From: a virus
Taxonomy: Duplodnaviria > Caudoviricetes
Strand: one strand, 5' to 3'
Length of the DNA: 42,221 nucleotides
IMG/VR virus record: IMGVR_UViG_3300037722_000144
Coordinates: 1 to 42,221 of that record
The notes beneath the pieces are model-generated. The model saw only the letters and a list, made by a program, of their open reading frames with translations. It was not told where the DNA came from and made no database searches. Below are positions 5,424 through 37,038 of this stretch, piece by piece. Made by a program: the position numbers and the translations under genes. Positions within the stretch are counted from its first letter, which is position 1. Every line of letters starts with the position of its first letter.

Positions 5424-5785
5424 TGGCTGCTTTTTATCATACATTTACAACAATTAACCAACCTGACCCATTTCTATTGGTTGCAGCCCTTCGTTTAAAT
5501 GACCCCGTTATCGGGTATGCCTACTTTGACCATACGTATCGTTTAAAGAAGAGCACCTCATGGACATTTAGACAAATTAATGAAGCCCAGCAAATACTAG
5601 ATACAACTGTTAAATCAACACCTCAGTTATTGGCACAGCAACGTATAGATATATGGCCTCTTGAATTTCGCGCTCTTGTTATGACATTTCTTGATATAAT
5701 TAATGAGTTACGAATAGAGTTAAGATTACCCATTATCACCTTAAACCAAACTCTTAATTCTATTCGAATTAAGGCCGGACAATAA
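5423..5785 (+). CDS. Hypothetical protein (possible fibre chaperone)
   Basis: ORF coupled to the fibre gene. Confidence 0.55.
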   Translation: MAAFYHTFTTINQPDPFLLVAALRLNDPVIGYAYFDHTYRLKKSTSWTFRQINEAQQILDTTVKSTPQLLAQQRIDIWPLEFRALVMTFLDIINELRIELRLPIITLNQTLNSIRIKAGQ

Positions 5786-6141: not shown

Positions 6142-6547
6142 ACCATCAAAACATTTAAGTTGGAATGAACTTAAATGTAAAGATGGGTCTCGCTATCCTC
6201 AAGAATATATAGATGATGGTCGATGTGAAAGATTGGTTGAATTATTTGAAGATATTAGAACTTTATGTGGTAATATTCCTATTAAAGTTTATTCTGCTTA
6301 TAGAACAATTGAATATAATAAATTAATAGGTGGAACATTGCATAGTCAGCATGTTCAGGGTAGGGCATTAGATTTACATCACACTTCATTAACTAATAAT
6401 GAATTTTATAAACTTATTCGAATTAATGCTAAACTATTAGGAATTGGTGGATTGGGTAGATATAAAACATTTGTTCATGTAGATATTAGACCCGGTAATA
6501 GAATTGCATACTGGGCAGCTAACGGAGTTAAAGATTCACCTGCTTGA
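6119..6547 (+). CDS. Peptidase M15 (D-Ala-D-Ala carboxypeptidase/YcbK-like), putative endolysin
   Basis: SAYRT..YN..IGG...SQHVQGRALD and GLGRYKTFVHVDIR zinc-ligand motifs; exact start uncertain. Confidence 0.88.
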   Translation: MMKLHLDKPSKHLSWNELKCKDGSRYPQEYIDDGRCERLVELFEDIRTLCGNIPIKVYSAYRTIEYNKLIGGTLHSQHVQGRALDLHHTSLTNNEFYKLIRINAKLLGIGGLGRYKTFVHVDIRPGNRIAYWAANGVKDSPA

Positions 6548-12561: not shown

Positions 12562-12950
12562 GAATCATATTTCATAATCGTGTTCGTAATTTTTTTGATG
12601 ATGGCATGAATTTCTTCATCATTATAAGGAAGATATTCATGTTCGAAAATACGGAAAAGAGCTTTTAATTCTTTAAGAGATAACCATAATCCTGGTTCAG
12701 GACTTCTATCAGATGTTATAATATTAGATTGTTTTATTTCCTTATTATAAAGTTCTAATTTACTTTCAGGATAATACCAATAGTCAGGTGCCCAATCTTC
12801 CTCAAATATTACTTTACAGATTATTGCACCATTTGGAATATTTCTAATAAATTGGTCATTTGTTCTAACAATTGTTATTAATCCATGACAGTATCTATCT
12901 CCATCTAACATTTTAATTCTGTCACCTGGTTTCATTGTTTTATCTCCCAA
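12558..12950 (-). CDS. Hypothetical protein
   Basis: ORF coupled to neighbours; probable start at MKPGDRIK (12935). Confidence 0.6.
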   Translation of the reverse strand: MGDKTMKPGDRIKMLDGDRYCHGLITIVRTNDQFIRNIPNGAIICKVIFEEDWAPDYWYYPESKLELYNKEIKQSNIITSDRSPEPGLWLSLKELKALFRIFEHEYLPYNDEEIHAIIKKITNTIMKYDS

Positions 12951-15900
12951 TCCCTATAAATTATATTAGTTAATTGAGATTCTTCCTTCCTTTCTTGATA
13001 TAAAAATTCTTCTGTCATATTACGTGGTATACTTAGAGATTCTATTACTTTAGGTGTAGTAGGAATTATAACTTCTCGAATTTTAAATTTATTTAGTTCC
13101 TGATAATTATAACCTAATTCAATTTCACATGGAATAACAAGTGGATTACGTGGTAATGAACAGAATTCAAAATCAATAGGCTTTTCAAATTCTTCTTTAA
13201 TTTGTGGTGCTATTTCATTTATAAAACGTTCTTCTATTTCGTATAGTAATGAATCGTGGGATTCAACAATTGGAATTAATTTAAGTTTATTACGAATACG
13301 TAATGCTGAGGCTTTAGTATTATCACTAATTGTGCGTTGGGGAATATATGAAAATGCCATTCTAAATAATTCATCACCCCATCTTTCAAAAAACTGACGT
13401 TTACCACCTGTTTTAGAATCTATACCATAAGGACGCGGAGCAGTAAGATATCGTTTATCGACTTCCAAACATTTGATAATTCCAGCATGGAATACCGAAC
13501 GTATTCTAGGTTGCTTCATATGGAAAATCTTAAGCGCGCGGTCTGCTACTGCTTCTGTAATTGCAATTGGAATTTTATATTTTCTTGCTTGAGTATTAGT
13601 TTCTACAGCAGCTCGTCTTTTTCCGGCTCCAAGGTGTCCCGCGTGTCTTAAAGTATTATGTGTTATAATAAAATCATCTGTAATATAACAATGGTCTTCA
13701 GAATCCACTGAAATACATTGACATTCTATCTCACGTGTCTTTTCAAGAGAAATAATATTTCTTGCTAAATTATATTTAGTTTTTGCGTTCCATCTTTCCC
13801 ATCTTTCTGCTTTTCTAGATAATTTAAATGGATTTAATTGTCTTATATTTATAAATATTCTATTAGATTTTCTGCCCTCTTTTATTTCTCCTTTATAAGT
13901 GTATTTGGGTATTCTATTAGTTTGATTAGCTACTCCCCCTAACGATCTTACTAAGTTAATTACATCTGTTGCTAATAAATTTGAAGAAGTTGAAAATTCT
14001 AATCCATTACCAAATTCTTGTATAGTTCCATCAGTATCTAATAAGCCCCTAAGTATTTCTAATCTAATTTCAAGAGAATTAAATTTATATATTTCTGGTA
14101 TAAATTTTTCATGGGAGTGCTTACCACCTAAACCTAATTCATTTAAAATTGGTCTAATGCCTGATATTCTAATAGATTTATCATCAGAACTGCCAAGTTT
14201 TTCATATCCTAATTTAGTTATTAATTCTTGAATGATTTCTTCATCAACTGAAAATAAACTACATTGATGAGGAGAAGTAAAGTTTCCATCTCCTATTAAA
14301 AGTCCTAAAATATAGGGGTCTATTGGAACTTCTTGGTAACTAAACCACATTGCATTATTCATTAATAAGGAATATTTAGGATTGCCCCTACTATTTTTTA
14401 ATTTTAGATTAAGAATATCCTTAAGTTCTTTAATTTGATAAATTTCTCGTGGTCTTTCCCAAATTGCTTGAATAGGCCAAAGATGTTCCTTACATGACTC
14501 AACTTCAGAGCCATCACTAAGTTTAATTTTATATACTTCTTTAATTCCCTGTGAGAATATTCCAGTTACTAATGAAATACCAAACCGAGAATTACATATT
14601 TCATCTCCTATTTGAATATCTTTCATTAATTTCCAACCAATAGGTGTTAAAATCTTACTATCTAATGGTTGAGCCTTGCCAAGAAATCTTTCTGGACATT
14701 CATAACCTAATATTTTTTTAGAATACTGTTCTTCAGTTCCACCTAAAAACCATGATGTAGTATAAGCATGATAATCTTTAATATCAATATCTATTAAAGC
14801 CTGTTCATCATTAGCAAGTCTAAAAACTACGCGCGCTTCCGCTTGTGCGGAATCAGCTTGAATAAATATATTACCTCGCGCGGGAACGTATTGTGACCTA
14901 ATATCCTGACCGATATCTCCGTGTTTAGTTATTGTTTGAAATGCTGTTCCTAATGCTTTTCTTTTTTTCTTATTCTCATCATCTCTATATTCAAAATATG
15001 GTCTAATAGGAGGTTCTAATTGTCCTGTGCTAGTTCTACCAGTTTCAAGACAGAGAAAATAAGTAGTTTTCATTTTGCCATCATAATCAGGCATTGCCAT
15101 TAAGTAAGTGCTTATTGTTTTTTCTACTCTTCTCTTTTCTAAAATAATTTCTACAATTCTACGTTTTTTAGAATCTGTAAATGATTGTAAGTTTAATAAA
15201 CTTGTAAGTTCTTCTTCACCTGTTCCACTTCGTATAGGACATTTGAGATTCTCAAATAATAATATTTTAACTTGCTTAGGTGAATTCACATTAACATGAT
15301 CACCTACTAATGAGAATAATTCATGCTGAAGATTTTCTGACCATGTAATGTATTTTTGAAACAGTGCTTCTTTCTTTTCATTATCAATATGAAAACCTTG
15401 AGATTCTATTTCTAAGTAAAGACCATGAAGGTGCATTATGAAATTTTCGTAGTAATCTTTTAAGTTTAAAGTGTCTAAATCAATATCCATTGCTAAGTCA
15501 ATTTCTTTAGTCACGCAAGCATCGCGCGCGTTATATTTATATAAATCGTCTATACTTTGCTTAGTAATATCAAAGTTTGCTCCTTCGTCTTTATAGTATG
15601 GTTCTCGGGTATAGATAGAAGTATTGAATGCAAGATTTTTGGGAAGTTCTGGATTAATTGCGAATGCTTTTAACATTGTATCTGATGTTAGTTTCTTAAT
15701 AATGAATCCCAATCTTTTAATTTTATCTTGATCATATTTAAAGTTCTGTCCCACTATTTCGTGTTTTGCTAATAATTCTGATAACATTATCCAGATATTG
15801 ATTAATTCTGAACTATGAATATTAGAGATACCGCGCACATTCCAGAGGGGAACTGAGATTCCTTCATATGGAGTAAAAGCAATACCAATGCAGGAAGGAA

Positions 15901-16564
15901 TACAATCAATAGCTTCAATGTCTACCGCAGGTTTATCATAATTCTTGTATCTTTTAATAAAATCATCAAGTTGAAAGGATGATTTACAAACTGTTAATGT
16001 TCGTTTTGGTAAGTCTAATTCAGATGATTGGGACTCGATAAGCGCGCGTTTAAAGTCGCATACCATTACCTGTTTATTCCAATATCCTTTTAATTCCCTT
16101 CCTGTTGTATTGTATAATAAATGCTCAGGATGATATGTTGGTATAAATTTACAACCCATACCATGAAGAATTGAACCACGATAATTAGTAATATTAGTTT
16201 TTCCTGACAATGCCCAAAGTGCTGAACTTCCTAATGCTAAAATGACATTAGGTTTAATAGCATTAATTTCATTTTGTAGGTCTCTTAATTGTTCGTTAAT
16301 GTCAATTCCATATTGTTCCGCGCGAATGTGAAATGGAGTTTTATCTTTTGAACTGGTTAGTGGAACAAAATATTTACAAACATTACTTATCCAGCATTCA
16401 TGCCTATTGATACCTGCATCTGTTAAAAGTTTATTTAGTTCTCTTCCAGAGTTTCCGACAAAGGGTTTTCCTGCTTCTAATTCTTGGTGATTTGGTGATT
16501 CTCCGAGAATCATTAGACGCGCGTGGGGTGGTCCACTTGCTGGAATGTAACTTTTATCGGTCAT
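12932..16564 (-). CDS. polA: Family A DNA polymerase with N-terminal uracil-DNA glycosylase-like domain, 3'-5' exonuclease and an intein
   Basis: UDG: ILGESP..QE...GKPFVG.SG, PTYHP; exonuclease: DIE, GQNFKYD, YNARD; polymerase: TGRTST, DSAQAEAR (A), RFLGK/TLRHAGHLG (B), HDSL (C). Confidence 0.93.
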   Translation of the reverse strand: MTDKSYIPASGPPHARLMILGESPNHQELEAGKPFVGNSGRELNKLLTDAGINRHECWISNVCKYFVPLTSSKDKTPFHIRAEQYGIDINEQLRDLQNEINAIKPNVILALGSSALWALSGKTNITNYRGSILHGMGCKFIPTYHPEHLLYNTTGRELKGYWNKQVMVCDFKRALIESQSSELDLPKRTLTVCKSSFQLDDFIKRYKNYDKPAVDIEAIDCIPSCIGIAFTPYEGISVPLWNVRGISNIHSSELINIWIMLSELLAKHEIVGQNFKYDQDKIKRLGFIIKKLTSDTMLKAFAINPELPKNLAFNTSIYTREPYYKDEGANFDITKQSIDDLYKYNARDACVTKEIDLAMDIDLDTLNLKDYYENFIMHLHGLYLEIESQGFHIDNEKKEALFQKYITWSENLQHELFSLVGDHVNVNSPKQVKILLFENLKCPIRSGTGEEELTSLLNLQSFTDSKKRRIVEIILEKRRVEKTISTYLMAMPDYDGKMKTTYFLCLETGRTSTGQLEPPIRPYFEYRDDENKKKRKALGTAFQTITKHGDIGQDIRSQYVPARGNIFIQADSAQAEARVVFRLANDEQALIDIDIKDYHAYTTSWFLGGTEEQYSKKILGYECPERFLGKAQPLDSKILTPIGWKLMKDIQIGDEICNSRFGISLVTGIFSQGIKEVYKIKLSDGSEVESCKEHLWPIQAIWERPREIYQIKELKDILNLKLKNSRGNPKYSLLMNNAMWFSYQEVPIDPYILGLLIGDGNFTSPHQCSLFSVDEEIIQELITKLGYEKLGSSDDKSIRISGIRPILNELGLGGKHSHEKFIPEIYKFNSLEIRLEILRGLLDTDGTIQEFGNGLEFSTSSNLLATDVINLVRSLGGVANQTNRIPKYTYKGEIKEGRKSNRIFINIRQLNPFKLSRKAERWERWNAKTKYNLARNIISLEKTREIECQCISVDSEDHCYITDDFIITHNTLRHAGHLGAGKRRAAVETNTQARKYKIPIAITEAVADRALKIFHMKQPRIRSVFHAGIIKCLEVDKRYLTAPRPYGIDSKTGGKRQFFERWGDELFRMAFSYIPQRTISDNTKASALRIRNKLKLIPIVESHDSLLYEIEERFINEIAPQIKEEFEKPIDFEFCSLPRNPLVIPCEIELGYNYQELNKFKIREVIIPTTPKVIESLSIPRNMTEEFLYQERKEESQLTNIIYRDWEIKQ
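13655..14674 (-). mobile_element. Class 3 intein with LAGLIDADG homing endonuclease in polymerase motif B (340 aa)
   Basis: Starts AQPLDSKILTPIGW, ends ITHN before T; HLW, CQCISV; LGLLIGDG and LRGLLDTDG. Confidence 0.92.
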
Positions 16565-20321: not shown

Positions 20322-20409
20322 TGGTGCCGAGAACGGGAATCGAACCCGTATGATTGTTAAAATCGACGGATTTTAAGTCCATTGTGTATACCAGTTCCAC
20401 CATCTCGGC
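20322..20409 (-). tRNA. tRNA-Leu (anticodon TAA)
   Basis: GCCGAGA/TCTCGGC acceptor stem, D-loop TGGTA, anticodon arm ATGGA-CTTAAAA-TCCGT, long variable arm, GGTTCGATTCC, encoded ACCA. Confidence 0.95.
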
Positions 20410-24328: not shown

Positions 24329-24813
24329 TTATAATCTTGCCAATGAATTGTATTAGCATCCCATTGTTTTGCAATTAAATTGATATGATTATTAAATATG
24401 TCAATCCAATTAAGAAATTCTTTTGAACCTACTGCGTCGTGTTTTCGAATTGCAAATAAAGATTTAATTTTCGCGTATTCAGAACGTTGTCCAGTTTTAT
24501 GAATTGCTACTTTTCCGAACTGAAGAATTATTCCTGCTATATGATAATAATTATTATCATAATTATCATAATAATAATTATAATTATTATTATAATAATT
24601 ATTATTATAATAATTATTATGATTATAAGCGTAAAGTCCCGAATTATTGTCTTTAACTAAATGTGGACCTTCAACCTTTGGTTTCCAAATATAATTTTTA
24701 TTTGATGACATTAAATTACTATCATTTTTATAGAAATTTTTCCATGTTCTATATCCTAATAATGCTTCAGATTCTTCTACTTGTTTAAATTGTTCAAAAT
24801 CTGGTAGGCACAT
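24325..24813 (-). CDS. Hypothetical protein with N/Y-rich insertion
   Basis: GYRTW...GLYAY-[N/Y tract]-IAGII..FGKVAIH..G.RSEYA; AAGGA RBS. Confidence 0.7.
   Translation of the reverse strand: MCLPDFEQFKQVEESEALLGYRTWKNFYKNDSNLMSSNKNYIWKPKVEGPHLVKDNNSGLYAYNHNNYYNNNYYNNNYNYYYDNYDNNYYHIAGIILQFGKVAIHKTGQRSEYAKIKSLFAIRKHDAVGSKEFLNWIDIFNNHINLIAKQWDANTIHWQDYK
24541..24627 (-). repeat. Degenerate trinucleotide repeat (NAT)29
   Basis: 29 consecutive AAT/TAT/GAT/CAT codons. Confidence 0.9.
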
Positions 24814-24829
24814 GATTTATTTTCCTTTG

Positions 24830-24871
24830 TTTTTAGTTTTTTTTTTTTTTTTTTTAGTTTTTAGTTTTTAG
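24830..24871. repeat. T19 homopolymer within TTTTTAG repeats
   Basis: T run at 24837-24855, flanked by TTTTTAG units. Confidence 0.85.
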
Positions 24872-24955
24872 TGAATTCAAGTAACGACAGTAAGGATTAC
24901 AAAATCTTCCCTTACCCTTTCTTCTAATACTGTTACAAATTTTACATATCATAAT

Positions 24956-25729
24956 TTACCTCCCAAACATTCCTCTAAGAACATTTGCAGCTTGTTCTAC
25001 ATTCATGTTACGACTAATTACTAAACTCTGTAAGTTGGGCATAATTAAATTTGCAGGAATATGTGGAAATTCTTTACTAATAACTCCTGCAACTTTAATC
25101 AATTCTGCCTTATTGAATTTTTTAATACTTGGAGCTTTAGGTTTGCTAATTTTTTTATCTGGAATCTTATAATTAACATCTTTCAGCTTAATTTCTGCTC
25201 GCTGTTCAATACGAAGTTTATTTGCTAAATCGTTGTAGTATTGTTGTATAGCACGTTGTTTTGACTGAGCTTCAATCATTGTATCGCGCGCAGCACTTAT
25301 TACGTCTTGAAAATGGGAATGTCTTTCTTCAATGACTTTTGCTAAAGTCATATGTTTTTCAACGATAGCTGTATCAGAGTCAATTGCAGATTTAATATCT
25401 ACAATTGCTACAGTTTCAGCATTGAATATGTCTTGAATGATTTGTATGGATTGGTCTACTTGGCTAGCGCGTGTAAGAGTAGCGCGCGTATTTGATTCAT
25501 TTCGCGATTCTTTAACTCGACTTTCCGCTGAGGCTTTTAATTCTATCTGTGCTATCTTTTCCTTTTCCTGACAATCTAAGCACATTAAAATATTACCATG
25601 AACTATATCGCATGTGCCCGAATTTGAACAGACTTCGCAAGTCGCGCGGTTAGTATGGTCTAATTCGGAATATTTACAAATAGTGCAGATAGTAGAATCT
25701 GTAATTGATTGTTGGAAATGGTGATTCAT
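24956..25729 (-). CDS. Hypothetical protein with N-terminal Cys/His cluster and coiled coil
   Basis: HHF..CTIC....H....CEVC...CLDC, then a helical region. Confidence 0.7.
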   Translation of the reverse strand: MNHHFQQSITDSTICTICKYSELDHTNRATCEVCSNSGTCDIVHGNILMCLDCQEKEKIAQIELKASAESRVKESRNESNTRATLTRASQVDQSIQIIQDIFNAETVAIVDIKSAIDSDTAIVEKHMTLAKVIEERHSHFQDVISAARDTMIEAQSKQRAIQQYYNDLANKLRIEQRAEIKLKDVNYKIPDKKISKPKAPSIKKFNKAELIKVAGVISKEFPHIPANLIMPNLQSLVISRNMNVEQAANVLRGMFGR

Positions 25730-26040
25730 TATTCTAGTCTAAGAAGAGGATTCCTCGTCTTGATAAATTTTTCAATACTACTCTTACCGCTTAGTAATAC
25801 TTCTTCTCGATTAGTTCCAGTTCTACAAAATTCGCACACTGGCCTATCTGTTTCCATATTCAGAGGATTTAATTTCATCACCTCGTCACACTCCCAACAG
25901 ATAGACGCGCGACCTTCTACCATATTTTCAAGGTGTTTAGGCATGTAATGATTACAGTCAGCAATCGCGCATCGCCAGACTTTTACATAGCCTAGTATTA
26001 CCTTAAAATATTTATGAATATGCTTTTTACTTCCTGCCAT
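25729..26040 (-). CDS. Hypothetical zinc-finger protein
   Basis: HIHKY...C...C.H...CWEC...CEFC. Confidence 0.7.
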   Translation of the reverse strand: MAGSKKHIHKYFKVILGYVKVWRCAIADCNHYMPKHLENMVEGRASICWECDEVMKLNPLNMETDRPVCEFCRTGTNREEVLLSGKSSIEKFIKTRNPLLRLE

Positions 26041-26116
26041 CTTATATTACCTAGCTAAACATGTCAAAAGATTGACATCCTTGTCCTATTCTGGTGACAC
26101 CTATACACCTACCCAT

Positions 26117-26145
26117 ATACTACACCCTCCCCCGGGAGATGTCAA
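26117..26145 (-). promoter_or_regulatory. Sigma70-type promoter for the replication operon
   Basis: TTGACA-17 nt-TAGTAT on the - strand, upstream of 26040. Confidence 0.6.
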
Positions 26146-26385
26146 GTACCAAAAGTGTAATTGGCTAAGTTAAGAGAGGAAATTTAATATTTATTATAAA
26201 AAAAAAAAAAAAAAAAAAATAAGAAAACTCTTTCCTTCTTTCGCCGTCCTCGGTTGCCCTTTGGAGCTTGGGGAGGGGGGAGGGGGGTATATAGGGATGT
26301 GTATACGTATGTAGGAATTACACTGTTTAGATATTTCTAATAGAACTTTCGATTTAAATTTGAAATTACAGAGACCGTAAATAGA

Positions 26386-26417
26386 AAAAGGCTAGGTCCG
26401 ATTAAGAACCTAGCCTA
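26386..26417 (-). terminator. Intrinsic terminator after gene 26444-26785
   Basis: AGGCTAGGT...ACCTAGCCT stem followed by a T run on the - strand. Confidence 0.7.
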
Positions 26418-26443
26418 TTCCGTAACGCTAGTATACCTAGCTA

Positions 26444-26785
26444 TTACATTCCGAGAGCAGCCTTTGCTACTTGCTCTGCTTCTGTTTCGTTGCGCCCCGC
26501 AGCTACGAGAACCTTGACCATCTGTCGGAGTCTGAAGTCTGCGTCCTCAAGTGTCGGTGCAGAAATTCCAGCTGCCTTGAGCGATTCTGCTTGCGCCTTA
26601 CTACGTGCGCCAGCATTACGCTTGCTGTTCACGAGTGCGCGAATGTCCTCTTCGTCTGGAGTCTCGCGGGCTGGAATTTCATCTCCCTTCTGAAGTTCCT
26701 GATACTCGTAGGCAAATTCCACGGGCTCGGAAAGTGGAATTCCGAATGCCGTAGTGACTGTAGCTGTTTTTGTGACTGACTTCAT
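26444..26785 (-). CDS. Hypothetical early protein (own transcription unit, higher GC)
   Basis: AAGGA RBS, own promoter and terminator. Confidence 0.75.
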   Translation of the reverse strand: MKSVTKTATVTTAFGIPLSEPVEFAYEYQELQKGDEIPARETPDEEDIRALVNSKRNAGARSKAQAESLKAAGISAPTLEDADFRLRQMVKVLVAAGRNETEAEQVAKAALGM

Positions 26786-26826
26786 GTCTGTTTTCCTTTC
26801 GCGCGTTCATTCGCGTTTGATTCCCT

Positions 26827-26855
26827 AGTATTTCATAGGGAAATCGGGATGTCAA
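26827..26855 (-). promoter_or_regulatory. Sigma70-type promoter
   Basis: TTGACA-17 nt-AATACT on the - strand. Confidence 0.6.
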
Positions 26856-26865
26856 AGAGAAATCG

Positions 26866-26908
26866 ACAAACTCACGATATTATTTCGATTACAATATCGT
26901 GAGTTTGT
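26866..26908 (-). terminator. 16-bp perfect inverted repeat (terminator or processing hairpin)
   Basis: ACAAACTCACGATATT / AATATCGTGAGTTTGT downstream of the early genes. Confidence 0.65.
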
Positions 26909-26928
26909 GCTGTGCTGGTGTCATTGCT

Positions 26929-27162
26929 TTAGTCGTGCCGGTGCTCGCAAGCAAGGTCAAACGGATCCGGGCTGGTGTCTAGGCCCACGGAGTGTAGGGT
27001 CACCTTGCGCGGACTTATAGCTTCGCATTCCTGTCGCGTGCCATACCAGCGACCTACGCGGGGATGGTCTCCATAACCGGATCCGTTGTCATCGTCGGTG
27101 TAGACTTCCGCATACCAGCCCCCGTCGTCGCACAGGACGTTCTTTTTCAGTGTCATGGTCAT
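26929..27162 (-). CDS. Hypothetical early protein
   Basis: ORF in the GC-richer early block. Confidence 0.55.
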   Translation of the reverse strand: MTMTLKKNVLCDDGGWYAEVYTDDDNGSGYGDHPRVGRWYGTRQECEAISPRKVTLHSVGLDTSPDPFDLACEHRHD

Positions 27163-27163
27163 G

Positions 27164-27352
27164 CTACTTTCGTGGAAGTGACTGTGCGCGTTTCCAGCCT
27201 TCGTCTGTGACGTAGCAGGCTTCGCACGTGTCAGTTGACGCTGCCTCTCTGCTTTCTCTGGGTAGTCCTACCCATTGGTCGGTATGCGCGCTACTGGCAC
27301 ATACTAGAACGTAGCCGTCTGAGGTTAGTAGCACTTTTCGTGATTCATGCAT
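27164..27352 (-). CDS. Hypothetical early protein
   Basis: Probable start at MHESRK (27352), overlapping the upstream stop; the ORF track extends it to 27397. Confidence 0.45.
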   Translation of the reverse strand: MHESRKVLLTSDGYVLVCASSAHTDQWVGLPRESREAASTDTCEACYVTDEGWKRAQSLPRK

Positions 27353-27521
27353 CGTCCCTGTGCTCCAAGTGATGGTTGATTGTGTCGATAAGGTCATAGG
27401 CTGACTGACGAATAGCTAGGATGCTATCTCGGTCAGTCTTGTTCAGCCATTGCTGCATTGCACTTGCTAAGCTTTGATGGCCAAGACTAAGGTCAAGAAT
27501 CAGACAATACAGTTTATACAT
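27345..27521 (-). CDS. Hypothetical early protein (58 aa)
   Basis: AGGAG RBS then MYKLYCLILDLSLGH...; not in the ORF track. Confidence 0.6.
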   Translation of the reverse strand: MYKLYCLILDLSLGHQSLASAMQQWLNKTDRDSILAIRQSAYDLIDTINHHLEHRDDA

Positions 27522-27576
27522 GTCTTATACTCCTGTTTGTTGAGAGTCTAATACACTGCCTAGAATTGGTAGATAG

Positions 27577-27843
27577 TTACTTGATATTTCTTAGCTTGAT
27601 GTTTCCGAGATGGTCGAATAATTGAGTCAGCATTGCATCATCAAGAGAATATGCAATGATTCGCGCCCAATAAAGTTCATTAGACGCGCAAATGAAATTT
27701 CCGTTTCCCTGTCCATCATCTTCGTAGATAGAAAAACGAAATTCGTCTTCCGTGTTTTTTCCGTTGTCATGAATTGCATAACCTTTTTCGCCACTCAATT
27801 CATGTTGATATTTGTCGAAGTTTTCAGTCCAGTCGTAAACCAT
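27577..27843 (-). CDS. Hypothetical early protein (repeat-flanked cassette 2)
   Basis: AGGAG RBS at the end of repeat A. Confidence 0.7.
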   Translation of the reverse strand: MVYDWTENFDKYQHELSGEKGYAIHDNGKNTEDEFRFSIYEDDGQGNGNFICASNELYWARIIAYSLDDAMLTQLFDHLGNIKLRNIK

Positions 27844-27929
27844 AGCAGACTCCTATTCCCTAGGCAGTCTACTAGACTCTCAATTGGTAAGAGTCTAATA
27901 CACTGCCTAGAATTGAAAGTTACGGTTAG

Positions 27930-28139
27930 TTACTTTGCGCTAACGATGATACCATCCTTTACTACACATGCTGCATACCATCTGTGTGGCTTCGGATAGT
28001 GCGGACCTTCAATCACGATGTTTCCATTTTGAGTGACAGGAAACATTTCATTTGGATTGTAGGGCATCAGATTGTTACCAAGCTTCACTGATATGAGAAA
28101 ATCCTTTTTTGTCGCGTAGTTTGGATTAACGTATGCCAT
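27930..28139 (-). CDS. Hypothetical early protein (repeat-flanked cassette 1; EGPHYPKPHRWYA motif)
   Basis: GAGG RBS then ATG at 28139. Confidence 0.75.
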   Translation of the reverse strand: MAYVNPNYATKKDFLISVKLGNNLMPYNPNEMFPVTQNGNIVIEGPHYPKPHRWYAACVVKDGIIVSAK

Positions 28140-28227
28140 GGGCAAGACCTCTATTCCCTAGGCAGTCTACTAGACTCTCACCTGATATTCAGTTGTCAAC
28201 CGTCGTCAACCGCGATACCAACCATAC

Positions 28228-28244
28228 TGCACTCGCCATGCCAA
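28228..28244 (-). promoter_or_regulatory. Putative sigma54 (-24/-12) promoter
   Basis: TTGGCATGGCGAGTGCA, GG-N10-GC spacing, upstream of the early gene block. Confidence 0.55.
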
Positions 28245-28275
28245 CATTTTCCTAATGTTTTTGAATTTACATATC

Positions 28276-28306
28276 TCAGATTTTCTGAATTTTTCAGATT
28301 TTCTGA
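28276..28306. promoter_or_regulatory. Two tandem palindromic boxes TCAGA-TTT-TCTGA (putative activator/operator sites)
   Basis: Identical 13-mers at 28276-28288 and 28294-28306. Confidence 0.5.
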
Positions 28307-28425
28307 GTTTTTATGGTAGAATGTCAGCCAGGTATAAAATGTTAGGGTATATGCCCGTATACAACACTTTTAGGGTCCTGCTGCATAGTGAACCGGAGGG
28401 GAATATTAACCAAACTTGACGGAGA

Positions 28426-28767
28426 CTATACGGAGTCTATTTTTACTTTAGGATTAACTTTAAGACTACCCTGGGGGGTAGGTTGTAATGTTATTTCAGA
28501 AACTTTTGAACATACATTGCATAAATATTGAGTAGGTCCAATTTGTTCTAATAGATTAGGAGTAGCAGAGGTGGTGCTACAATGCGGGCATTTAAGAATT
28601 TTATGTTCAGTTAGTGGCTTAGAATATCCGCGTAACCTATCATTATGAAAATTTGAACGACATTTATCTGAACAGAATTTCTGTGGATTTTTACTAAATT
28701 GTCGCTTCGGCTCTAGGGGGCCGCCGCAGTTCTCGCATGGAGGGTAAGTCGTTCCTTCGCGTTTCAT
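28426..28767 (-). CDS. Double zinc-finger protein
   Basis: CENCG...KFCSDKCR and CPHC...CNVC; consensus promoter directly upstream. Confidence 0.75.
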   Translation of the reverse strand: MKREGTTYPPCENCGGPLEPKRQFSKNPQKFCSDKCRSNFHNDRLRGYSKPLTEHKILKCPHCSTTSATPNLLEQIGPTQYLCNVCSKVSEITLQPTPQGSLKVNPKVKIDSV

Positions 28768-28781
28768 GCCGTCTAAACGCG

Positions 28782-28810
28782 ATTATACGCCTTTCAAGGG
28801 GGGTTGTCAA
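28782..28810 (-). promoter_or_regulatory. Perfect consensus sigma70 promoter
   Basis: TTGACA-17 nt-TATAAT on the - strand. Confidence 0.85.
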
Positions 28811-28889
28811 GGGAAATCGGTTGTGAGACAATCGGGGAAAGGGGTCGAACCGCGTATTTTATTGTAATGTTTAGTTAGAGAATATTACT

Positions 28890-29432
28890 ATGATGGGCAT
28901 TTGTAACGATGAAGATTTTGAATTAGAAATTAATAGTCTTACTAAGATTGAACCTGAAATTATTCCCATGCCTGATAAGGGTAGAGGTTATGGTAATGGT
29001 CAAGTTCCTGAGTCACTACGAAAAATCATAGGTGAAGAATCTATTGAAGGAAATAGACAATCAGCATTAGAATTAGGGCGCGCGTTTGGTATTTCCGATT
29101 CCTCAGTTTCTGCCTATTCTGCTGGTTCTACTTCGACTAGTTCTTATCAGAGTCCTGTTAGAAGTTTAAATTCTCATCTTAATAAAGTTAAGGAAAAGAT
29201 TCAGTCTAAAGCGAGAAGAAGATTAACTTTAGCACTCGATAGTATTACTCCTGAAAAATTACAAGAAGCTAATTTACGCGAAGCAAGCGGAGTTGCGCGT
29301 GACATGAGTGTGATTATAAAAAATTTGGAACCTGAATCTAATAAGGAGGAAAATAATAATACTCAATTTGTAATCTATGCTCCTAGTTTTCGTGATGAAC
29401 GAAGTTTTGACATTATTCGAGTTAATGAATAA
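28890..29432 (+). CDS. Putative terminase small subunit (HTH)
   Basis: HTH-like ALELGRAFGISDSSVSAY, helical core, C-terminal beta strand; first gene of the late strand. Confidence 0.5.
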   Translation: MMGICNDEDFELEINSLTKIEPEIIPMPDKGRGYGNGQVPESLRKIIGEESIEGNRQSALELGRAFGISDSSVSAYSAGSTSTSSYQSPVRSLNSHLNKVKEKIQSKARRRLTLALDSITPEKLQEANLREASGVARDMSVIIKNLEPESNKEENNNTQFVIYAPSFRDERSFDIIRVNE

Positions 29433-30756: not shown

Positions 30757-30922
30757 AATTTCAAAAGCTATTGCAGGTGGATTAGGTGCAGCGATTGCTA
30801 AAACTATTATGTTATTTATTCCAGAAATGAATATAGAGTCTAGAGAAGCTGTAGAATATGTAATTTATACTGTTATTACGGGATTAGCAGTTTACATTGC
30901 TCCTGCTAATAAGGGACTATAG
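30749..30922 (+). CDS. Putative holin (57 aa, two hydrophobic segments)
   Basis: MNKISKAIAGGLGAAIAKTIMLFIP...YVIYTVITGLAVYIAPANKGL; GGAG RBS; not in the ORF track. Confidence 0.6.
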   Translation: MNKISKAIAGGLGAAIAKTIMLFIPEMNIESREAVEYVIYTVITGLAVYIAPANKGL

Positions 30923-30950
30923 TTTAGGATTCTTTTTAATAAGAAATAAA

Positions 30951-33548
30951 ATGTTCCCTAGTAGACTAGAAGGATTTAAGCCATCGAAAAGACAAGAGAA
31001 ATTTCTATCTCTACCTACAACTATTCAAGAAGCTGCATATGCTGGAGGCGCAGGAAGTGGAAAAGCTCTAGCTTTAGATACTATTATTCCAACTTCCCAA
31101 GGTTATAAAAAAATAGAAGATGTTCATGTTGGTGATTACGTTTATAACCATGAAGGTTGGCCTACTGTTGTTTTTGCTGAATCTCCAATATTTGTAGACC
31201 ATGAATGTTTCAAGGTAACTCTTGATTCTGGTATAATAATTACAGCAGATGCAGACCATCTTTGGGTAGTTCATAAAAATCAGACAAATAGAAATAAACT
31301 AGGTCGATATTCTATTTTATCTACTAAGCAATTATTTGAAAGTAAAGATAAATGGTCTATCATAGTTTCAGAACCTCTCAAAAAAGAAAATAAAAATTAT
31401 CCTCTAGACCCTTATACTCTTGGTGCTTGGTTAGGAGATGGTTCAAGACAAGGAGCTATAATTACTTGTGCTGACTTGGAAATTGTTAATAGAATAAATC
31501 AAACTCATCAAGTAACTGAACATAATACAAAATATTCATATGGTATTCTAAAAATACTTGAACCTCTTCGGAATTTGAATTTACTCGGTAACAAACATAT
31601 TCCAGATTTATATTTTGAATTAGAATTTGATTTAAGATTAGCCTTACTTCAGGGATTAATGGATACTGATGGAACTATTAATGCTAGTGGAACTGGAATA
31701 GAATTGTCATTGTCAGATGAAAGATTAGCAAAAGATGTTTTAAAATTAATTTATTCACTTGGAATTAAGGCTTCTTGCACAATTAATAAATCTGTTTTGA
31801 ATGGTAAAAATTATAAAAATAGGTATAGAATTAAATTTGCAACTAAAATTCCAGTATTTAGTTTAAATCGTAAGGTTGAAAGACATGAGGTTGTTAGAAA
31901 CATTTCAAATAATAATACAACTAGAAATAAATGGCATTATATTAAATCAATTGAAATAACTGAAACTGTCCCAACAAAATGTTTACAAGTATTAGGTGGA
32001 ATATATTTAGTAACAGAAGCATGTATTCCTACACATAATACCGAAATACTTTTACTTTATGGTATTATTCATAAATGGCATGAATTTCCTACTTTTAAGC
32101 AACTCTTTCTGAGGAGAACATATCCAGAAATACGAGATGAAGTGTGGCCGCGCGCGTCGTTCCTTTATCGTAAGTTTGGTGCTACACCTAATCAACAGTC
32201 AATGACTTGGACTTTTCCATCGGGTGCGCGTATCATTTTTGGTCATTGTGAAAATGATAACGATGTTCACCGATATGATACTACTCAGATTAATCTTTTT
32301 ACTCCTGATGAAGTAACATCACTAAGCGAGTTTATTTATCTTTATATATCATTGCAACGTGTTAGAACTGCTGATTCACGATTACCAGCAATTACGCGCG
32401 GTGCTGGAATGCCTGGGAATATTGGTCACTTATGGTTCAAGAAACGTTTTGTAGACCCTTGTAAGCAGGGTGGAAAAATAATTGTAGGTCGCGCGGGTAG
32501 GAAGAGATTTTTTATTCATTCTACTCTTGCAGATAATCCCGGTATTGACCCTAATTATAAGCAGTCCCTTGAAGCTATACCTGATGCTGCTGAAAGAAAT
32601 GCTAAACTTTATGGTAACTTTGATGCTTATCAAGGTCAAGTATTTGATGAGTTTAGAGATAGATCTATTCCATTAGAGCCTGAAAATGCCATTCATGTAA
32701 TCGAACCATTTGAAATTCCCGAATGGTGGCCTAGAATTATGGTAGGTGACTGGGGCTATGCTGCCATGACCTATCTTGGATTTTTTGCAATTTCTCCTAG
32801 TAAGAGAGTTTATCAATATCGTGAATTAGCATGGAGAAAAACTAAAATTGAAGAATGGGCACCTTCTGTAAAGTCACTATTAGATGGTGAGAATATAAAA
32901 TTAGTAAAATTTTGTAAATCAGCTGGACAAGAAAGAGGACAGGAACATACTATTCAACAACAAATTAGTGAAGCATTAGATAGGGAAATTGAATTAAGTA
33001 ATAATTCTCCCGGTTCGCGCGTTGCTGGTAAGATGCTTATTCACGAGTATCTACGTTGGAAATCTAAGGCTATTATACCAAGTTCAGAGACTCCAACTTA
33101 CAATGATGAACACGCGCGATTCATTCTTCGTAATAAGGGACTTGAACATTATAAGAATTATCTTGCTCAATTTGAACCTCCTGAAGAGGAAATTAATTTA
33201 CCAAAATTTCAAATATTTAAATGTAATGAAGAGAATCACGATGGACATCCCTTTTGTTGTCCTATAATGATTGATACTATTAAGGCTTGTTCTTATGATA
33301 AGAAGAGAATTGAAGATATTCAAGAATTTAATGGTGATGACCCTATTGACACACTTCGTTATGCACTTGATACCGTAGATTCTTACTTCGATGAAGCAAA
33401 TGATGAATTTCAGAAAGTTCAAAAGCAAGAACAACTGATTCAAAGATTGCAAGGTAGCCAAAATTTTACAGCATTTTATAATCAAAGTAGAGCATTAGAG
33501 TCTAATGATAGACCGCGTATGATTAGTCGATATCATAGGAGTAGATAA
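30951..33548 (+). CDS. terL: Terminase large subunit with intein
   Basis: YAGGAGSGK/T Walker A, LRRTYPE, DEVT Walker B, GDWGY and DDPIDTLRY nuclease motifs; likely start ATG 30951. Confidence 0.93.
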   Translation: MFPSRLEGFKPSKRQEKFLSLPTTIQEAAYAGGAGSGKALALDTIIPTSQGYKKIEDVHVGDYVYNHEGWPTVVFAESPIFVDHECFKVTLDSGIIITADADHLWVVHKNQTNRNKLGRYSILSTKQLFESKDKWSIIVSEPLKKENKNYPLDPYTLGAWLGDGSRQGAIITCADLEIVNRINQTHQVTEHNTKYSYGILKILEPLRNLNLLGNKHIPDLYFELEFDLRLALLQGLMDTDGTINASGTGIELSLSDERLAKDVLKLIYSLGIKASCTINKSVLNGKNYKNRYRIKFATKIPVFSLNRKVERHEVVRNISNNNTTRNKWHYIKSIEITETVPTKCLQVLGGIYLVTEACIPTHNTEILLLYGIIHKWHEFPTFKQLFLRRTYPEIRDEVWPRASFLYRKFGATPNQQSMTWTFPSGARIIFGHCENDNDVHRYDTTQINLFTPDEVTSLSEFIYLYISLQRVRTADSRLPAITRGAGMPGNIGHLWFKKRFVDPCKQGGKIIVGRAGRKRFFIHSTLADNPGIDPNYKQSLEAIPDAAERNAKLYGNFDAYQGQVFDEFRDRSIPLEPENAIHVIEPFEIPEWWPRIMVGDWGYAAMTYLGFFAISPSKRVYQYRELAWRKTKIEEWAPSVKSLLDGENIKLVKFCKSAGQERGQEHTIQQQISEALDREIELSNNSPGSRVAGKMLIHEYLRWKSKAIIPSSETPTYNDEHARFILRNKGLEHYKNYLAQFEPPEEEINLPKFQIFKCNEENHDGHPFCCPIMIDTIKACSYDKKRIEDIQEFNGDDPIDTLRYALDTVDSYFDEANDEFQKVQKQEQLIQRLQGSQNFTAFYNQSRALESNDRPRMISRYHRSR
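31065..32039 (+). mobile_element. Class 3 intein with LAGLIDADG homing endonuclease in the terminase Walker A (325 aa)
   Basis: Starts ALALDTIIPT, ends PTHN before T; DHLW, TKCLQV; LGAWLGDG and LQGLMDTDG. Confidence 0.92.
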
Positions 33549-34729: not shown

Positions 34730-37038
34730 AAAAAGAATTATCTGAAAATATTAAACAACGATTAAAAGAACTTGTTCGTAATGCAGAACAAGAAGACCAG
34801 GCTGTGCGCGAACGACAAATTAGACAGTGGAGACAACTTAAATTATTTTGGGAAGGTTTTCAGAAAGTTTATTATAGTGAAGTTGCGCATGATTGGAGAA
34901 TTTATGATGAAACTGCAAATGAACCAACTGACCAAGGTTCATATGATAAACCTATAAATGTATTTAGAGCTTATTTAGAATCATTAATTGCAGCATTATC
35001 GGTTACAGTCCCTTCAGTTAAATGTTATCCTGATGATGCTGATAATACTTTAGATTTAGCAACAGCGCGCGCTGGTGATAAAATTGCTCAATTAATTTAT
35101 CGTCATAATGATGTTACTCTTCTTTGGCTTCATGCTCTTTTTATTTTTATGACTGAGGGATTAGTAGCTTGTTATGCTTATCCTAAGGAAGATAAAGAAT
35201 ATGGAACTTATGAAGAGAAAGAATATAAGGATGATATTGAGAATCATGAGTATTCTCGTTGTCCCGAATGCCAAGAATTACTAGATGATAAATTAATTAC
35301 TCCTGAACAATTAGAAGCTAAGGAGAAAGAATTAGAAGATGAATTCATGCCTGACGAGGAACCTAGAATTGAAAAAGAAGAATACTGTCCAGCCTGTGCA
35401 AAGTTAGTTTTACCGGAAAATTCGCGTGAATCTCTTACAATTACTAGATTAATAGGAATTACTAATAAACCTAAGTCTAGAATTTGCACGGAAGTTTATG
35501 GTGGTCTTTATGTTAAAGTTCCTAACTATGCTAAAAGACAGGAACAATGTCCGTATCTAATTTATTCATTTGAAACTAATTATGCATTTGTATTAGAACA
35601 ATTTCCTCATTTGAAAGATAAACTAAAGACTACAGGTGCAAATGGTGCTTATGACCAATACGATCAATGGGGAAGATTAAATCCACAATATAGAGGTGAA
35701 TATCCTATTAATGTTGTTACGATGAAATATGCTTGGCTTAGACCAGCACTTTTTCATACATTAAAAGATGAAGATGAAACTGAAGAACTTAAGCGTCTTT
35801 TTCCAAATGGTGCAAAAGTAATTTTAGCAAATGATGATTTTGCGGAAGCCTATAATGAGAATTTAGATGATTGTTGGACTCTTTCTCATAATCCATTATC
35901 TGATTATTTGCATCATGACCCACTTGGTTTATTACTTGTTAGTGTTCAAGAAATTACTAATGATTTAATTTCATTGGTTATTCAAACTATTGAACATGGT
36001 ATTTCTTTACTGTTTGCTGACCCAGGCTCTCTTAACTTTAAAGCATTTGAAAATACAGAAGTTACTCCAGGTGGAGTATTTCCTGCTAGCACTAAAACAG
36101 GAAAGAGTTTACAAGAATCATTTTATGATGTTAAACCGGCGCATCTTTCTCCTGAAGTATTACCATTCTTTCAGACTATTCAATCTTTAGGACAAATGGT
36201 ATCAGGTGCGCTTCCTAGTTTATTCGGAGGTTCAATAAAAGGTAGTGATACCGCGTCAGAATATGCAATGAGTCGCGCGCAAGCATTACAGAGATTACAG
36301 ACTACTTGGAAAATCTTTACCATTTGGTGGAAGAATGTTCAAGGTAAAGTTATTCCAATGTATATTAAGGAAGTAAAAGAAGACGAACGGGATGTTCAAC
36401 AGGATGATAGTGGTAATTTTATTAATGTATTCATTCGTAAAGCTGAACTAGAAGGAAAAATTGGTAAAATTGAATTAGAAACTTCTGAAAATCTTCCTAT
36501 TACTTGGGCGCAACAGAAGGATGCTTATATGCAACTTCTTATGACTAGTAATCCAGAAATTCTTAAAATTATTGCTTCTCCTGAGAATCTTCCTATTCTA
36601 CGTCAAGCTATTGGACTTGTTGACCTTTATGTTCCCGGTGAAGATGATAGAGAAAAGCAATATGATGAAATTAAACTTCTTCTTAACTCTGAACCCATCA
36701 TGGAACCTCCAGAGCAGGGAGAAGTTCAAGAAGCATTATTACTAGGAATGCCTCCTCCACAAGAGTTAGAATTACCATCTATTGAACCCGAAGAAATTGA
36801 TAATCATATTGTTCATTATGAAACTTGTAGGAAATGGGCAGTTTCTGAAGCTGGAAGACAGACTAAGACTGATAATCCTTTAGGTTATAAGAACGTTCTT
36901 TTACATGCTAAGATGCATCAGATTATGATGACTCAAACTATTTCTCCGCAAGAGGAAATTGGTGTGGTTCCTGCGGAAAAACCCAATGCAAATCGAAACA
37001 CACCCATAACCGGAGAAGAAAATGTTCAGACTGTTTAA
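34726..37038 (+). CDS. Portal protein
   Basis: 770 aa between terminase and scaffold/capsid genes; largely helical; assignment mainly by synteny and size. Confidence 0.8.
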   Translation: MKKELSENIKQRLKELVRNAEQEDQAVRERQIRQWRQLKLFWEGFQKVYYSEVAHDWRIYDETANEPTDQGSYDKPINVFRAYLESLIAALSVTVPSVKCYPDDADNTLDLATARAGDKIAQLIYRHNDVTLLWLHALFIFMTEGLVACYAYPKEDKEYGTYEEKEYKDDIENHEYSRCPECQELLDDKLITPEQLEAKEKELEDEFMPDEEPRIEKEEYCPACAKLVLPENSRESLTITRLIGITNKPKSRICTEVYGGLYVKVPNYAKRQEQCPYLIYSFETNYAFVLEQFPHLKDKLKTTGANGAYDQYDQWGRLNPQYRGEYPINVVTMKYAWLRPALFHTLKDEDETEELKRLFPNGAKVILANDDFAEAYNENLDDCWTLSHNPLSDYLHHDPLGLLLVSVQEITNDLISLVIQTIEHGISLLFADPGSLNFKAFENTEVTPGGVFPASTKTGKSLQESFYDVKPAHLSPEVLPFFQTIQSLGQMVSGALPSLFGGSIKGSDTASEYAMSRAQALQRLQTTWKIFTIWWKNVQGKVIPMYIKEVKEDERDVQQDDSGNFINVFIRKAELEGKIGKIELETSENLPITWAQQKDAYMQLLMTSNPEILKIIASPENLPILRQAIGLVDLYVPGEDDREKQYDEIKLLLNSEPIMEPPEQGEVQEALLLGMPPPQELELPSIEPEEIDNHIVHYETCRKWAVSEAGRQTKTDNPLGYKNVLLHAKMHQIMMTQTISPQEEIGVVPAEKPNANRNTPITGEENVQTV

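Follow-up and report, generated by a model that had tools for sequence, protein, structure and literature searches.

Small Early Phage Genes Enclosed by Inverted-Repeat Arms: Probable RNA Stems and Candidate RNase III Processing Brackets

Introduction

Why should two unrelated small genes of one phage each be enclosed by the same pair of inverted repeats? The question is raised by a locus on the minus strand of a 42,221-nt record, which was analyzed at its full length and is called the window here. The first-pass annotation of this DNA offered two answers. Either the arms form RNA stems that loop out whole open reading frames for excision in the manner of rRNA processing stems, with the hairpin between the two units as a possible switch, or they are sites of an integron-like system through which genes are gained, lost or inverted. 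In this work, we describe the array and its relatives, and we weigh these and other explanations.

The whole record (42.2 kb) is phage DNA whose ends overlap by 208 nt. Pfam and PHROGs scans revealed a terminase, a major head protein, a family A DNA polymerase, a primase, a helicase, Sak4, and an exonuclease. The array lies near the start of a leftward operon oriented away from the packaging genes, and G+C content at 27-28 kb is 46%, compared with mostly 30-40% in the rest of the window. Its region is present in 18 sequencing runs, as DNA contigs in every one, which has no bearing on expression; the runs listed with most of the region are all sediment metagenomes. A helicase query against GTDB genomes found no relative, and a capsid query found no matching cultured phage. 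The match of gene 2 in the Atlas to an Acidobacteriota cluster (score 0.82) is a host lead only.

Several other features of the genome deserve mention. At 12932-16564 and 30897-33548, a uracil-DNA-glycosylase domain is fused to the DNA polymerase, and the polymerase and the terminase both carry LAGLIDADG-bearing inserts, which are likely inteins. A tRNA gene lies at 20325-20409 on the minus strand, and an AT-rich tandem repeat (24540-24626) encodes an Asn/Tyr run in a 162-aa ORF. A 251-nt stretch (26910-27160) that includes a 77-aa ORF is absent from a co-occurring strain in two runs, and the arms are not its bounds. Finally, 23 of 25 bases are common to 27646-27670 (gene 2, minus strand) and 36258-36282 (a putative portal gene, plus strand; E=1.8e-4); over this match, which could also be due to chance, the mRNA of gene 2 would run antisense to that of the portal gene.

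Architecture of the Array

The array consists of two units, each with a 5' arm (A), a ribosome site, a gene, and a 3' arm (B):

28158..28181 (extended; 22-nt core 28179-28158), minus strand: A1, the 5' arm of stem 1, with the G.G mismatch at 28167
28148..28153, minus strand: Shine-Dalgarno-like site of gene 1, directly inside the stem
27930..28139, minus strand: gene 1, 69 aa, from a widespread phage protein family without known function
27886..27910 (extended; core 27910-27889), minus strand: B1, the 3' arm of stem 1, with the mismatch partner at 27901
27860..27883 (core 27881-27860), minus strand: A2, the 5' arm of stem 2, with the G.G mismatch at 27869
27849..27855, minus strand: Shine-Dalgarno-like site of gene 2
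27577..27843, minus strand: gene 2, 88 aa, whose homologue search found only itself
27540..27563 (core 27563-27542), minus strand: B2, the 3' arm of stem 2
27345..27521, minus strand: a 58-aa gene, the first past the array and outside any stem

The coordinates, a search for further copies, and folding all confirm the 22-bp arm pairs around two genes on the transcribed minus strand that the first-pass annotation had described. The A1 and A2 cores are identical, and those of B1 and B2 agree at 21 of 22 positions, differing at one end base. No further copy of an arm occurs in the 42 kb, where the next best match has 7 mismatches. The cores of the stems measure 24-25 bp, or up to 26-27 bp with wobbles, and A2 starts 2 nt past the extended B1 arm. 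The fold of the array region has z=-8.7, and none of 20 shuffles was equally stable. In both units, the ATG lies 16-18 nt past the arm and the stop codon 13-19 nt ahead of the 3' arm; as had been noted, Shine-Dalgarno-like sites stand immediately inside the 5' arm. The arms also double as direct repeats (43 nt at 88% and 50 nt at 80%).

Two details of the earlier description hold in part. One G.U and one G.G had been counted in each arm pair, which is correct for A2:B2 (22 Watson-Crick pairs, 1 G.U, 1 G.G), while A1:B1 contains one G.U more (22 Watson-Crick, 2 G.U, 1 G.G). The palindrome described inside the A arm exists, but its center measures 1 nt, so it could form a weak 5-bp hairpin at most.

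The family of gene 1 comprises 42 proteins, itself included, and no Pfam or PHROG family matched gene 1 above noise. The two enclosed genes had been called unrelated, with paralogy named as one outcome that would speak against the proposal. Blastp between the two proteins gave E=2.2 and paralogy was rejected; because the proteins are unrelated, the array is not a simple paralogue duplication. Gene-enclosing arms were found at none of 23 other loci with gene-1 homologues, where the best score was 12.5 compared with 19.9 here. An Rfam scan of 24600-29000 gave no credible match, and thus no known ribozyme cuts the units of the window.

Transcription of the Array

Promoter-like and terminator-like sites around the array are the following:

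28782..28810, minus strand: sigma-70-type promoter matching the consensus at 12 of 12 positions, which could read through a 113-aa zinc-finger ORF into the array
28228..28243, minus strand: sigma-54-like site 48 nt ahead of A1 and candidate array promoter
26908-26866, minus strand: terminator-like hairpin ahead of the promoter of the downstream 113-aa gene
26827..26855, minus strand: sigma-70-type promoter of the downstream 113-aa gene (26785-26444)

No terminator-like site was found between the sigma-70-type site (28810) and the array, or within the array. With promoter-like sites upstream and no terminator-like site inside, both arms of each stem are predicted to lie on one transcript.

In the sigma-54-like site, GG and GC stand ten bases apart, which we take to be the consensus spacing. 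The motif occurs on the early strand of 17 of 35 loci and on the other strand of 6 of 35, and shuffles gave a mean of 1.6 and a maximum of 6. Such sites lie 319-452 nt ahead of the arrays in three relatives (L075, L081, and L084), and none was found before the array of L102. A TGCA-rich sequence lies upstream of the sigma-54-like site in some relatives. A promoter of this type could tie infection to a host activator.

Stem Arrays in Related Phages

Relatives were gathered by the helicase (10 loci), a putative small terminase (57 loci), and the downstream 113-aa gene (6 loci), in overlapping sets; since the 113-aa gene by itself matched nothing, an alignment of three homologues was used instead. 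Inverted repeats were called with a symmetric procedure that scores G.U and A.C alike (score of at least 17, loop of 150-420 nt). The relatives' early strand (140.7 kb) yielded 21 inverted repeats and their late regions (249.7 kb) none. Among viral loci that were for the most part unrelated (405.7 kb), the same procedure called 6 repeats, none of them around a ribosome site and an ORF; one of the 6 was a relative's own stem (L218, the same as L084b). Matches to a relaxed non-coding-RNA pattern were mostly due to chance and were recycled as a control set.

Twelve array stems were chosen by inspection from the 21 called repeats, after seven repeats with poly-T loops and those of L061 and L070 had been dropped. 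They comprise the two of the window (as L038), two in L075, one in L081 (=L029), five in L084 (=L030), mostly back to back, and two in L102. A metagenome contig, L096, added two more, one around a shared non-coding RNA and one around a homologue of the L081 cargo; it was fetched via a neighboring gene and examined once the pattern had already been set. Without the window, five contigs therefore carry 12 stems around small genes or a ~190-nt non-coding RNA at the same place. Eight of the 12 array stems enclose one gene or a pair, the ATG lying 13-29 nt past the 5' arm and the stop codon 7-36 nt ahead of the 3' arm. L102a has the same geometry but a weak ribosome site, and the remaining three stems enclose non-coding RNA. 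Most neighboring stems are 0-14 nt apart.

The shared RNA of ~180-200 nt was located within stems as follows:

L030, 3701-3924, plus strand: shared non-coding RNA
L075, 4387-4597, minus strand: shared non-coding RNA
L102, 2990-3192, plus strand: shared non-coding RNA
L096, 120-324, plus strand: shared non-coding RNA, found by the RNA model (89 bits)

The inner helices of this RNA covary, and its L030 copy has no Rfam match. The RNA model, applied to 100 sources covering part of the loci, found no copy in the window. The relatives reveal a new family of non-coding RNA, whose enclosure in four stems is as expected of a general processing bracket.

Stems occur in only 3 of 34 non-redundant relatives (those with the small terminase and at least 1.2 kb of early strand), a count to which many short or distant contigs contribute. 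In L029, L030, and L096, the stems are likewise followed by a homologue of the downstream 113-aa gene, and in L097 and L098 the downstream gene is present while the array is absent. From these counts, the stem array appears to be a trait of part of the phage family.

The same early regions hold other elements. L016 (3268-8526) carries ten intergenic repeat elements, of which Rfam recognizes seven as type II hammerhead ribozymes; a gene-1 homologue is bracketed there by two of these ribozymes, without stem arms. This suggests another way of cutting such transcripts into single genes. The L030 early region contains a Twister-P1-like element (6439-6513, E=1e-6) and a pistol-like one (5456-5502, E=0.008), both below Rfam gathering scores, and a hammerhead-like motif is visible in L067. 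Perfect or near-perfect inverted repeats of 17-28 bp surround a conserved early gene region in L061 (897-1318), L067 (1310-2561), and L095 (132-763), where the first two are counted on the early strand; they are without the usual stem geometry.

Evidence for Pairing as RNA

On the transcribed strand, 13 stems (the set leaves out the second copy in the window) contain G.U and A.C pairs in a ratio of 28:3 (p=5e-6), which becomes 29:5 when the set-aside L061 and L070 are added. The poly-T-loop repeats of the same phages have 16:12 (Fisher p=0.006 versus the stems). The stems share descent and the caller favors paired arms, so these p values overstate independence. Such a poly-T/A repeat is also present in the window at 26096-26309, as an imperfect inverted repeat around a long tract with two promoter-like sites flanking it; it occurs in ~10 relatives, is without G.U bias, and is likely a DNA-level element, e.g., an origin.

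Among the four orthologous stems around the same non-coding RNA, 84 of 84 cells are paired and 13 of 21 columns have changes on both sides; in one column A-U, G.U, and G-C all occur. Arm sequences in the relatives are specific to each unit, also between units within one genome, and they pair over their own cargo and not across the junction: the duplex of arms around one cargo has -33 to -59 kcal/mol, compared with -10 to -22 kcal/mol for the junction duplex, at 6 of 6 junctions. The window differs, with a junction duplex (B1:A2) of -35.6 kcal/mol, because the arms of its two units are identical.

We therefore regard the arms as very probably real RNA stems. Given the G.U bias, the covariation, and the pairing over own cargo, the repeating unit is best described as arm, cargo, and arm acting as RNA, which agrees with the unit first proposed. 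The earlier suggestion of stems that loop out whole ORFs, rRNA-fashion, is likewise well supported by the G.U bias, the covariation, and the fixed geometry in relatives. Among the relatives, cargo varies and the arms stay matched. The suggested switch at the junction has fared less well. A strong junction hairpin is found in the window only and is not a feature of the family; since the relatives do not keep the degeneracy of identical arms, a switch is unlikely.

RNase III Register and Proposed Mechanism

Thirteen of the 14 stems are built alike, with one 1x1 mismatch that separates 9-14 bp on the inner (gene) side from 11-28 bp on the outer side. The exception, L096b, has a second mismatch, which shortens its inner run to 3 bp. 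The mismatch is of the type U.U, C.C, A.C, or G.G and is preceded in most stems by C-G, U-A, A-U. When it is set between the cuts, positions D and D' are A-U or U-A in 24 of 26 cases versus 51% overall; this register is the best of 16, with p=1.5e-4 after correction, for stems that are non-independent. One position further out, 10 of 13 stems have C-G. Pair types of the Aquifex box are present at positions 2-4 of the outer half-site in 13, 10, and 6 of 13 stems, and the inner half-site matches the box pattern at D' only.

These features can be compared with published RNase III substrates. The RNase III footprint comprises 22 bp around a staggered cut, and the enzyme can be limited to a single strand by mismatches (PMC3867540). 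E. coli substrates strongly favor an A-U pair at each of the positions D and D' (PMC6212723). In the Aquifex 16S stalk, an A.C pair adjoins a cut, and the proximal box has A-U, G-C, A-U at positions 2-4 (PMC3074117); the outer C-G position of our stems resembles position 3 of that box.

Judged by these likenesses, host RNase III probably cuts the stalks as it does those of rRNA and would free end-clamped single-gene mRNAs. One early transcript from an upstream host promoter would span both arms, which would pair into an RNA stalk of ~25 bp with one small gene per loop, and the enzyme would cut both strands beside the single mismatch. The predicted cuts, within 1 nt on either side, are near 28167/28166 and 27900/27899 in unit 1, and near 27869/27868 and 27553/27552 in unit 2. 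The products would measure ~267-269 and ~316-318 nt and would be closed by ~11 bp with a 2-nt 3' overhang, the ribosome site lying just within the helix. Such paired ends might slow decay and uncouple the genes, allowing strong expression directly after entry. An alternative nested fold (A1:B2 with B1:A2) would form the same duplex at nearly equal stability. Whichever fold is cut, the two genes would come apart, with unclamped ends in the nested case.

Some observations do not sit easily with RNase III processing. The stems are restricted to the few relatives counted above and are missing from L097 and L098. The two central positions between the cuts are paired in ~90% of E. coli targets (PMC6212723), and few E. 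coli mRNA substrates have long loops (median of 58 nt between cuts). In the full-length fold of the window, the nested form is better than the looped one by 2-4 kcal/mol; the A1:B1 pairing dominates until A2 is made.

What sets the window apart is that its two units have identical arms, probably through a recent copy. They most likely reflect recent copying or homogenizing of an arm pair with a change of cargo, possibly via Sak4-type recombination, and so illustrate how such arrays may grow. A fuller scenario can be drawn, which we consider improbable as a whole: the first transcript, from a host sigma-54-type promoter, would yield excised, end-sealed mRNAs together with the ~190-nt RNA, ligated into circles by a host enzyme; the bracket would be copied for reuse with new genes swapped in, the window being a snapshot taken just after such a copying event.

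Alternative Readings

The closest competitor to processing by RNase III is that the stalks form and are not cut through. They might clamp or insulate the RNA of each gene, place the stop codon close to the ribosome site, or serve RNase III or a different dsRNA-binding protein only as a place to bind or nick. The RNA-level evidence fits this equally, and a fixed mismatch may indeed limit RNase III to single-strand cutting or to binding (PMC3867540, PMC3074117). On the other hand, the two-turn length, the inner run of ~11 bp, and A-U at D and D' are more in keeping with an RNase III footprint than with a simple clamp, and stems placed back to back, most with 0-14 nt between them, also speak for cutting. 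We therefore rate uncut stalks as unlikely, though ahead of the other alternatives. Ligation of the cut ends, which would turn the single-gene mRNAs and the non-coding RNA into circles, is a still less likely extension of the cutting model. After cuts on both strands, a 5' phosphate and a 3' hydroxyl would lie next to each other on a helix of ~11 bp (end chemistry, PMC3074117), but no data require ligation, and no RNA ligase family appeared among the phage proteins scanned, most of which have no family.

A different kind of explanation places the function in DNA, with the repeats serving mainly as sites of an integron-like, invertible, or mobile cassette system. The arms are also direct repeats that flank unrelated genes, the relatives' cargo differs, and the phage encodes Sak4 and an exonuclease (PHROGs scan); in T4-type phages, PeSL repeats shuffle genes by a like recombination (PMC2839356). 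In addition, the sequence of a 151-nt soil contig (run X17, depth 3) departs from that of the window precisely at the outer edge of B2 and continues into a different ribosome site and ATG, a weak hint that the content beside the bracket turns over. Against this, a strand-specific G.U bias is unexpected for DNA sites, the arms vary between units of one genome, and the loci of the other gene-1 homologues are without arms. The first-pass annotation had seen no site-specific recombinase, and no recombinase of any kind was found (64 proteins in the PHROGs scan and 65 in the Pfam scan), although most of these proteins have no family and may include a novel one. The search that it had called for, of the arms against viral contigs, returned for a 21-nt pattern only an identical copy of the same phage. 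Contigs from 8 of the 18 runs showed no deletion, inversion, or other joint at the arms; coverage was patchy in most, and contigs drop rare variants. Short, loose-ended matches in genes 1 and 2 (X15, X17) and near 27030-27065 (X18) were taken to stem from other organisms. Taken together, an integron-like or inversion system is very unlikely to be the function of the arms, while homologous recombination at the direct repeats may help such arrays to evolve.

The least probable reading, to which we give almost no weight, takes the local B1-A2 hairpin as the functional element, either as a T7-type RNase III site or as a switch, with the outer arms as by-products of duplication. This hairpin does win in a transcript that ends just past A2 and in the full-length fold, but all six junctions of the relatives are far weaker than the enclosing pairs, and L081 has a lone enclosing stem and no junction at all.

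Comparison with Known Systems

The nearest structural parallels to stems cut by RNase III are the stalks of 16S and 23S rRNA and the precursor stem of the B. subtilis scRNA, in which flanking sequences likewise form a long duplex with the unit as its loop (PMC4838370, PMC3074117). The rRNA stalks and the array also share two helical turns and a mismatch beside the predicted cut. The cargo is different: genes of 40-90 aa with their own ribosome sites, or an RNA of ~190 nt, arranged serially in a phage. It is neither rRNA nor a known stable RNA, as it consists of ORFs, and no Rfam match was found in the window array or in the enclosed RNA of L030.

Known splitting of phage early mRNAs by RNase III relies on local hairpins, and the sites of T7 and SP82 other than T7 R1.1 are also local. 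The DicF/dicB operon of an E. coli defective prophage reportedly undergoes RNase III-dependent processing (a 1990 study). T7 R1.1 (PMC8708148) and the SP82 early mRNA (PMC4838370) share with the array a polycistronic early transcript that the host enzyme likely splits into gene-sized, end-protected messages. T7 R1.1, however, forms a local hairpin of which a single strand is cut (PMC8708148), whereas the arms of the array are 180-350 nt apart, on both sides of a gene. A local intergenic hairpin of the T7 type is not conserved among the arrays, being strong in the window only. A literature search of full texts, which included few subscription papers, returned no description of stalks that enclose genes in phage mRNA.

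Cassette systems are more distant. An integron cassette has one folded attC-type site downstream of its gene, whereas each unit here has two arms that pair over the gene, and no attC core motifs were seen by eye near the array. MITE/MPME-type elements have terminal inverted repeats, occur at several sites or in unrelated genomes, and produce a target duplication. A small mobile element of this kind was rejected: the 21-nt pattern lies only in the identical phage copy, no target duplication is visible by eye, and arms are absent at 23 of 23 loci of gene-1 homologues. The PeSL cassettes of T4-type phages are alike in having repeated intergenic elements beside small variable genes that could seed recombinase-free homologous recombination (PMC2839356). 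They differ in being direct repeats of a promoter and a terminator hairpin, while the array arms are inverted across a gene, mostly unit-specific, and contain neither a promoter-like nor a terminator-like site on the transcribed strand.

The locus combines a single-mismatch RNase III register, a snapshot with identical arms, a sigma-54-like promoter, and, in relatives, an enclosed non-coding RNA. If the proposed cutting takes place, bracketing of whole genes would leave both ends of each message protected, and early genes could be tuned or added singly; if the clamp stabilizes mRNA, units of <350 nt would make a compact expression part. As these families are defined, the array stands outside both the rRNA stalks and the T7 hairpins, since its cargo is not rRNA, its conserved element is not a local hairpin, and its cleavage is a prediction. 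By analogy, it likely functions as an rRNA processing stalk applied to mRNA, with a purpose that resembles the processing of T7 early mRNA.
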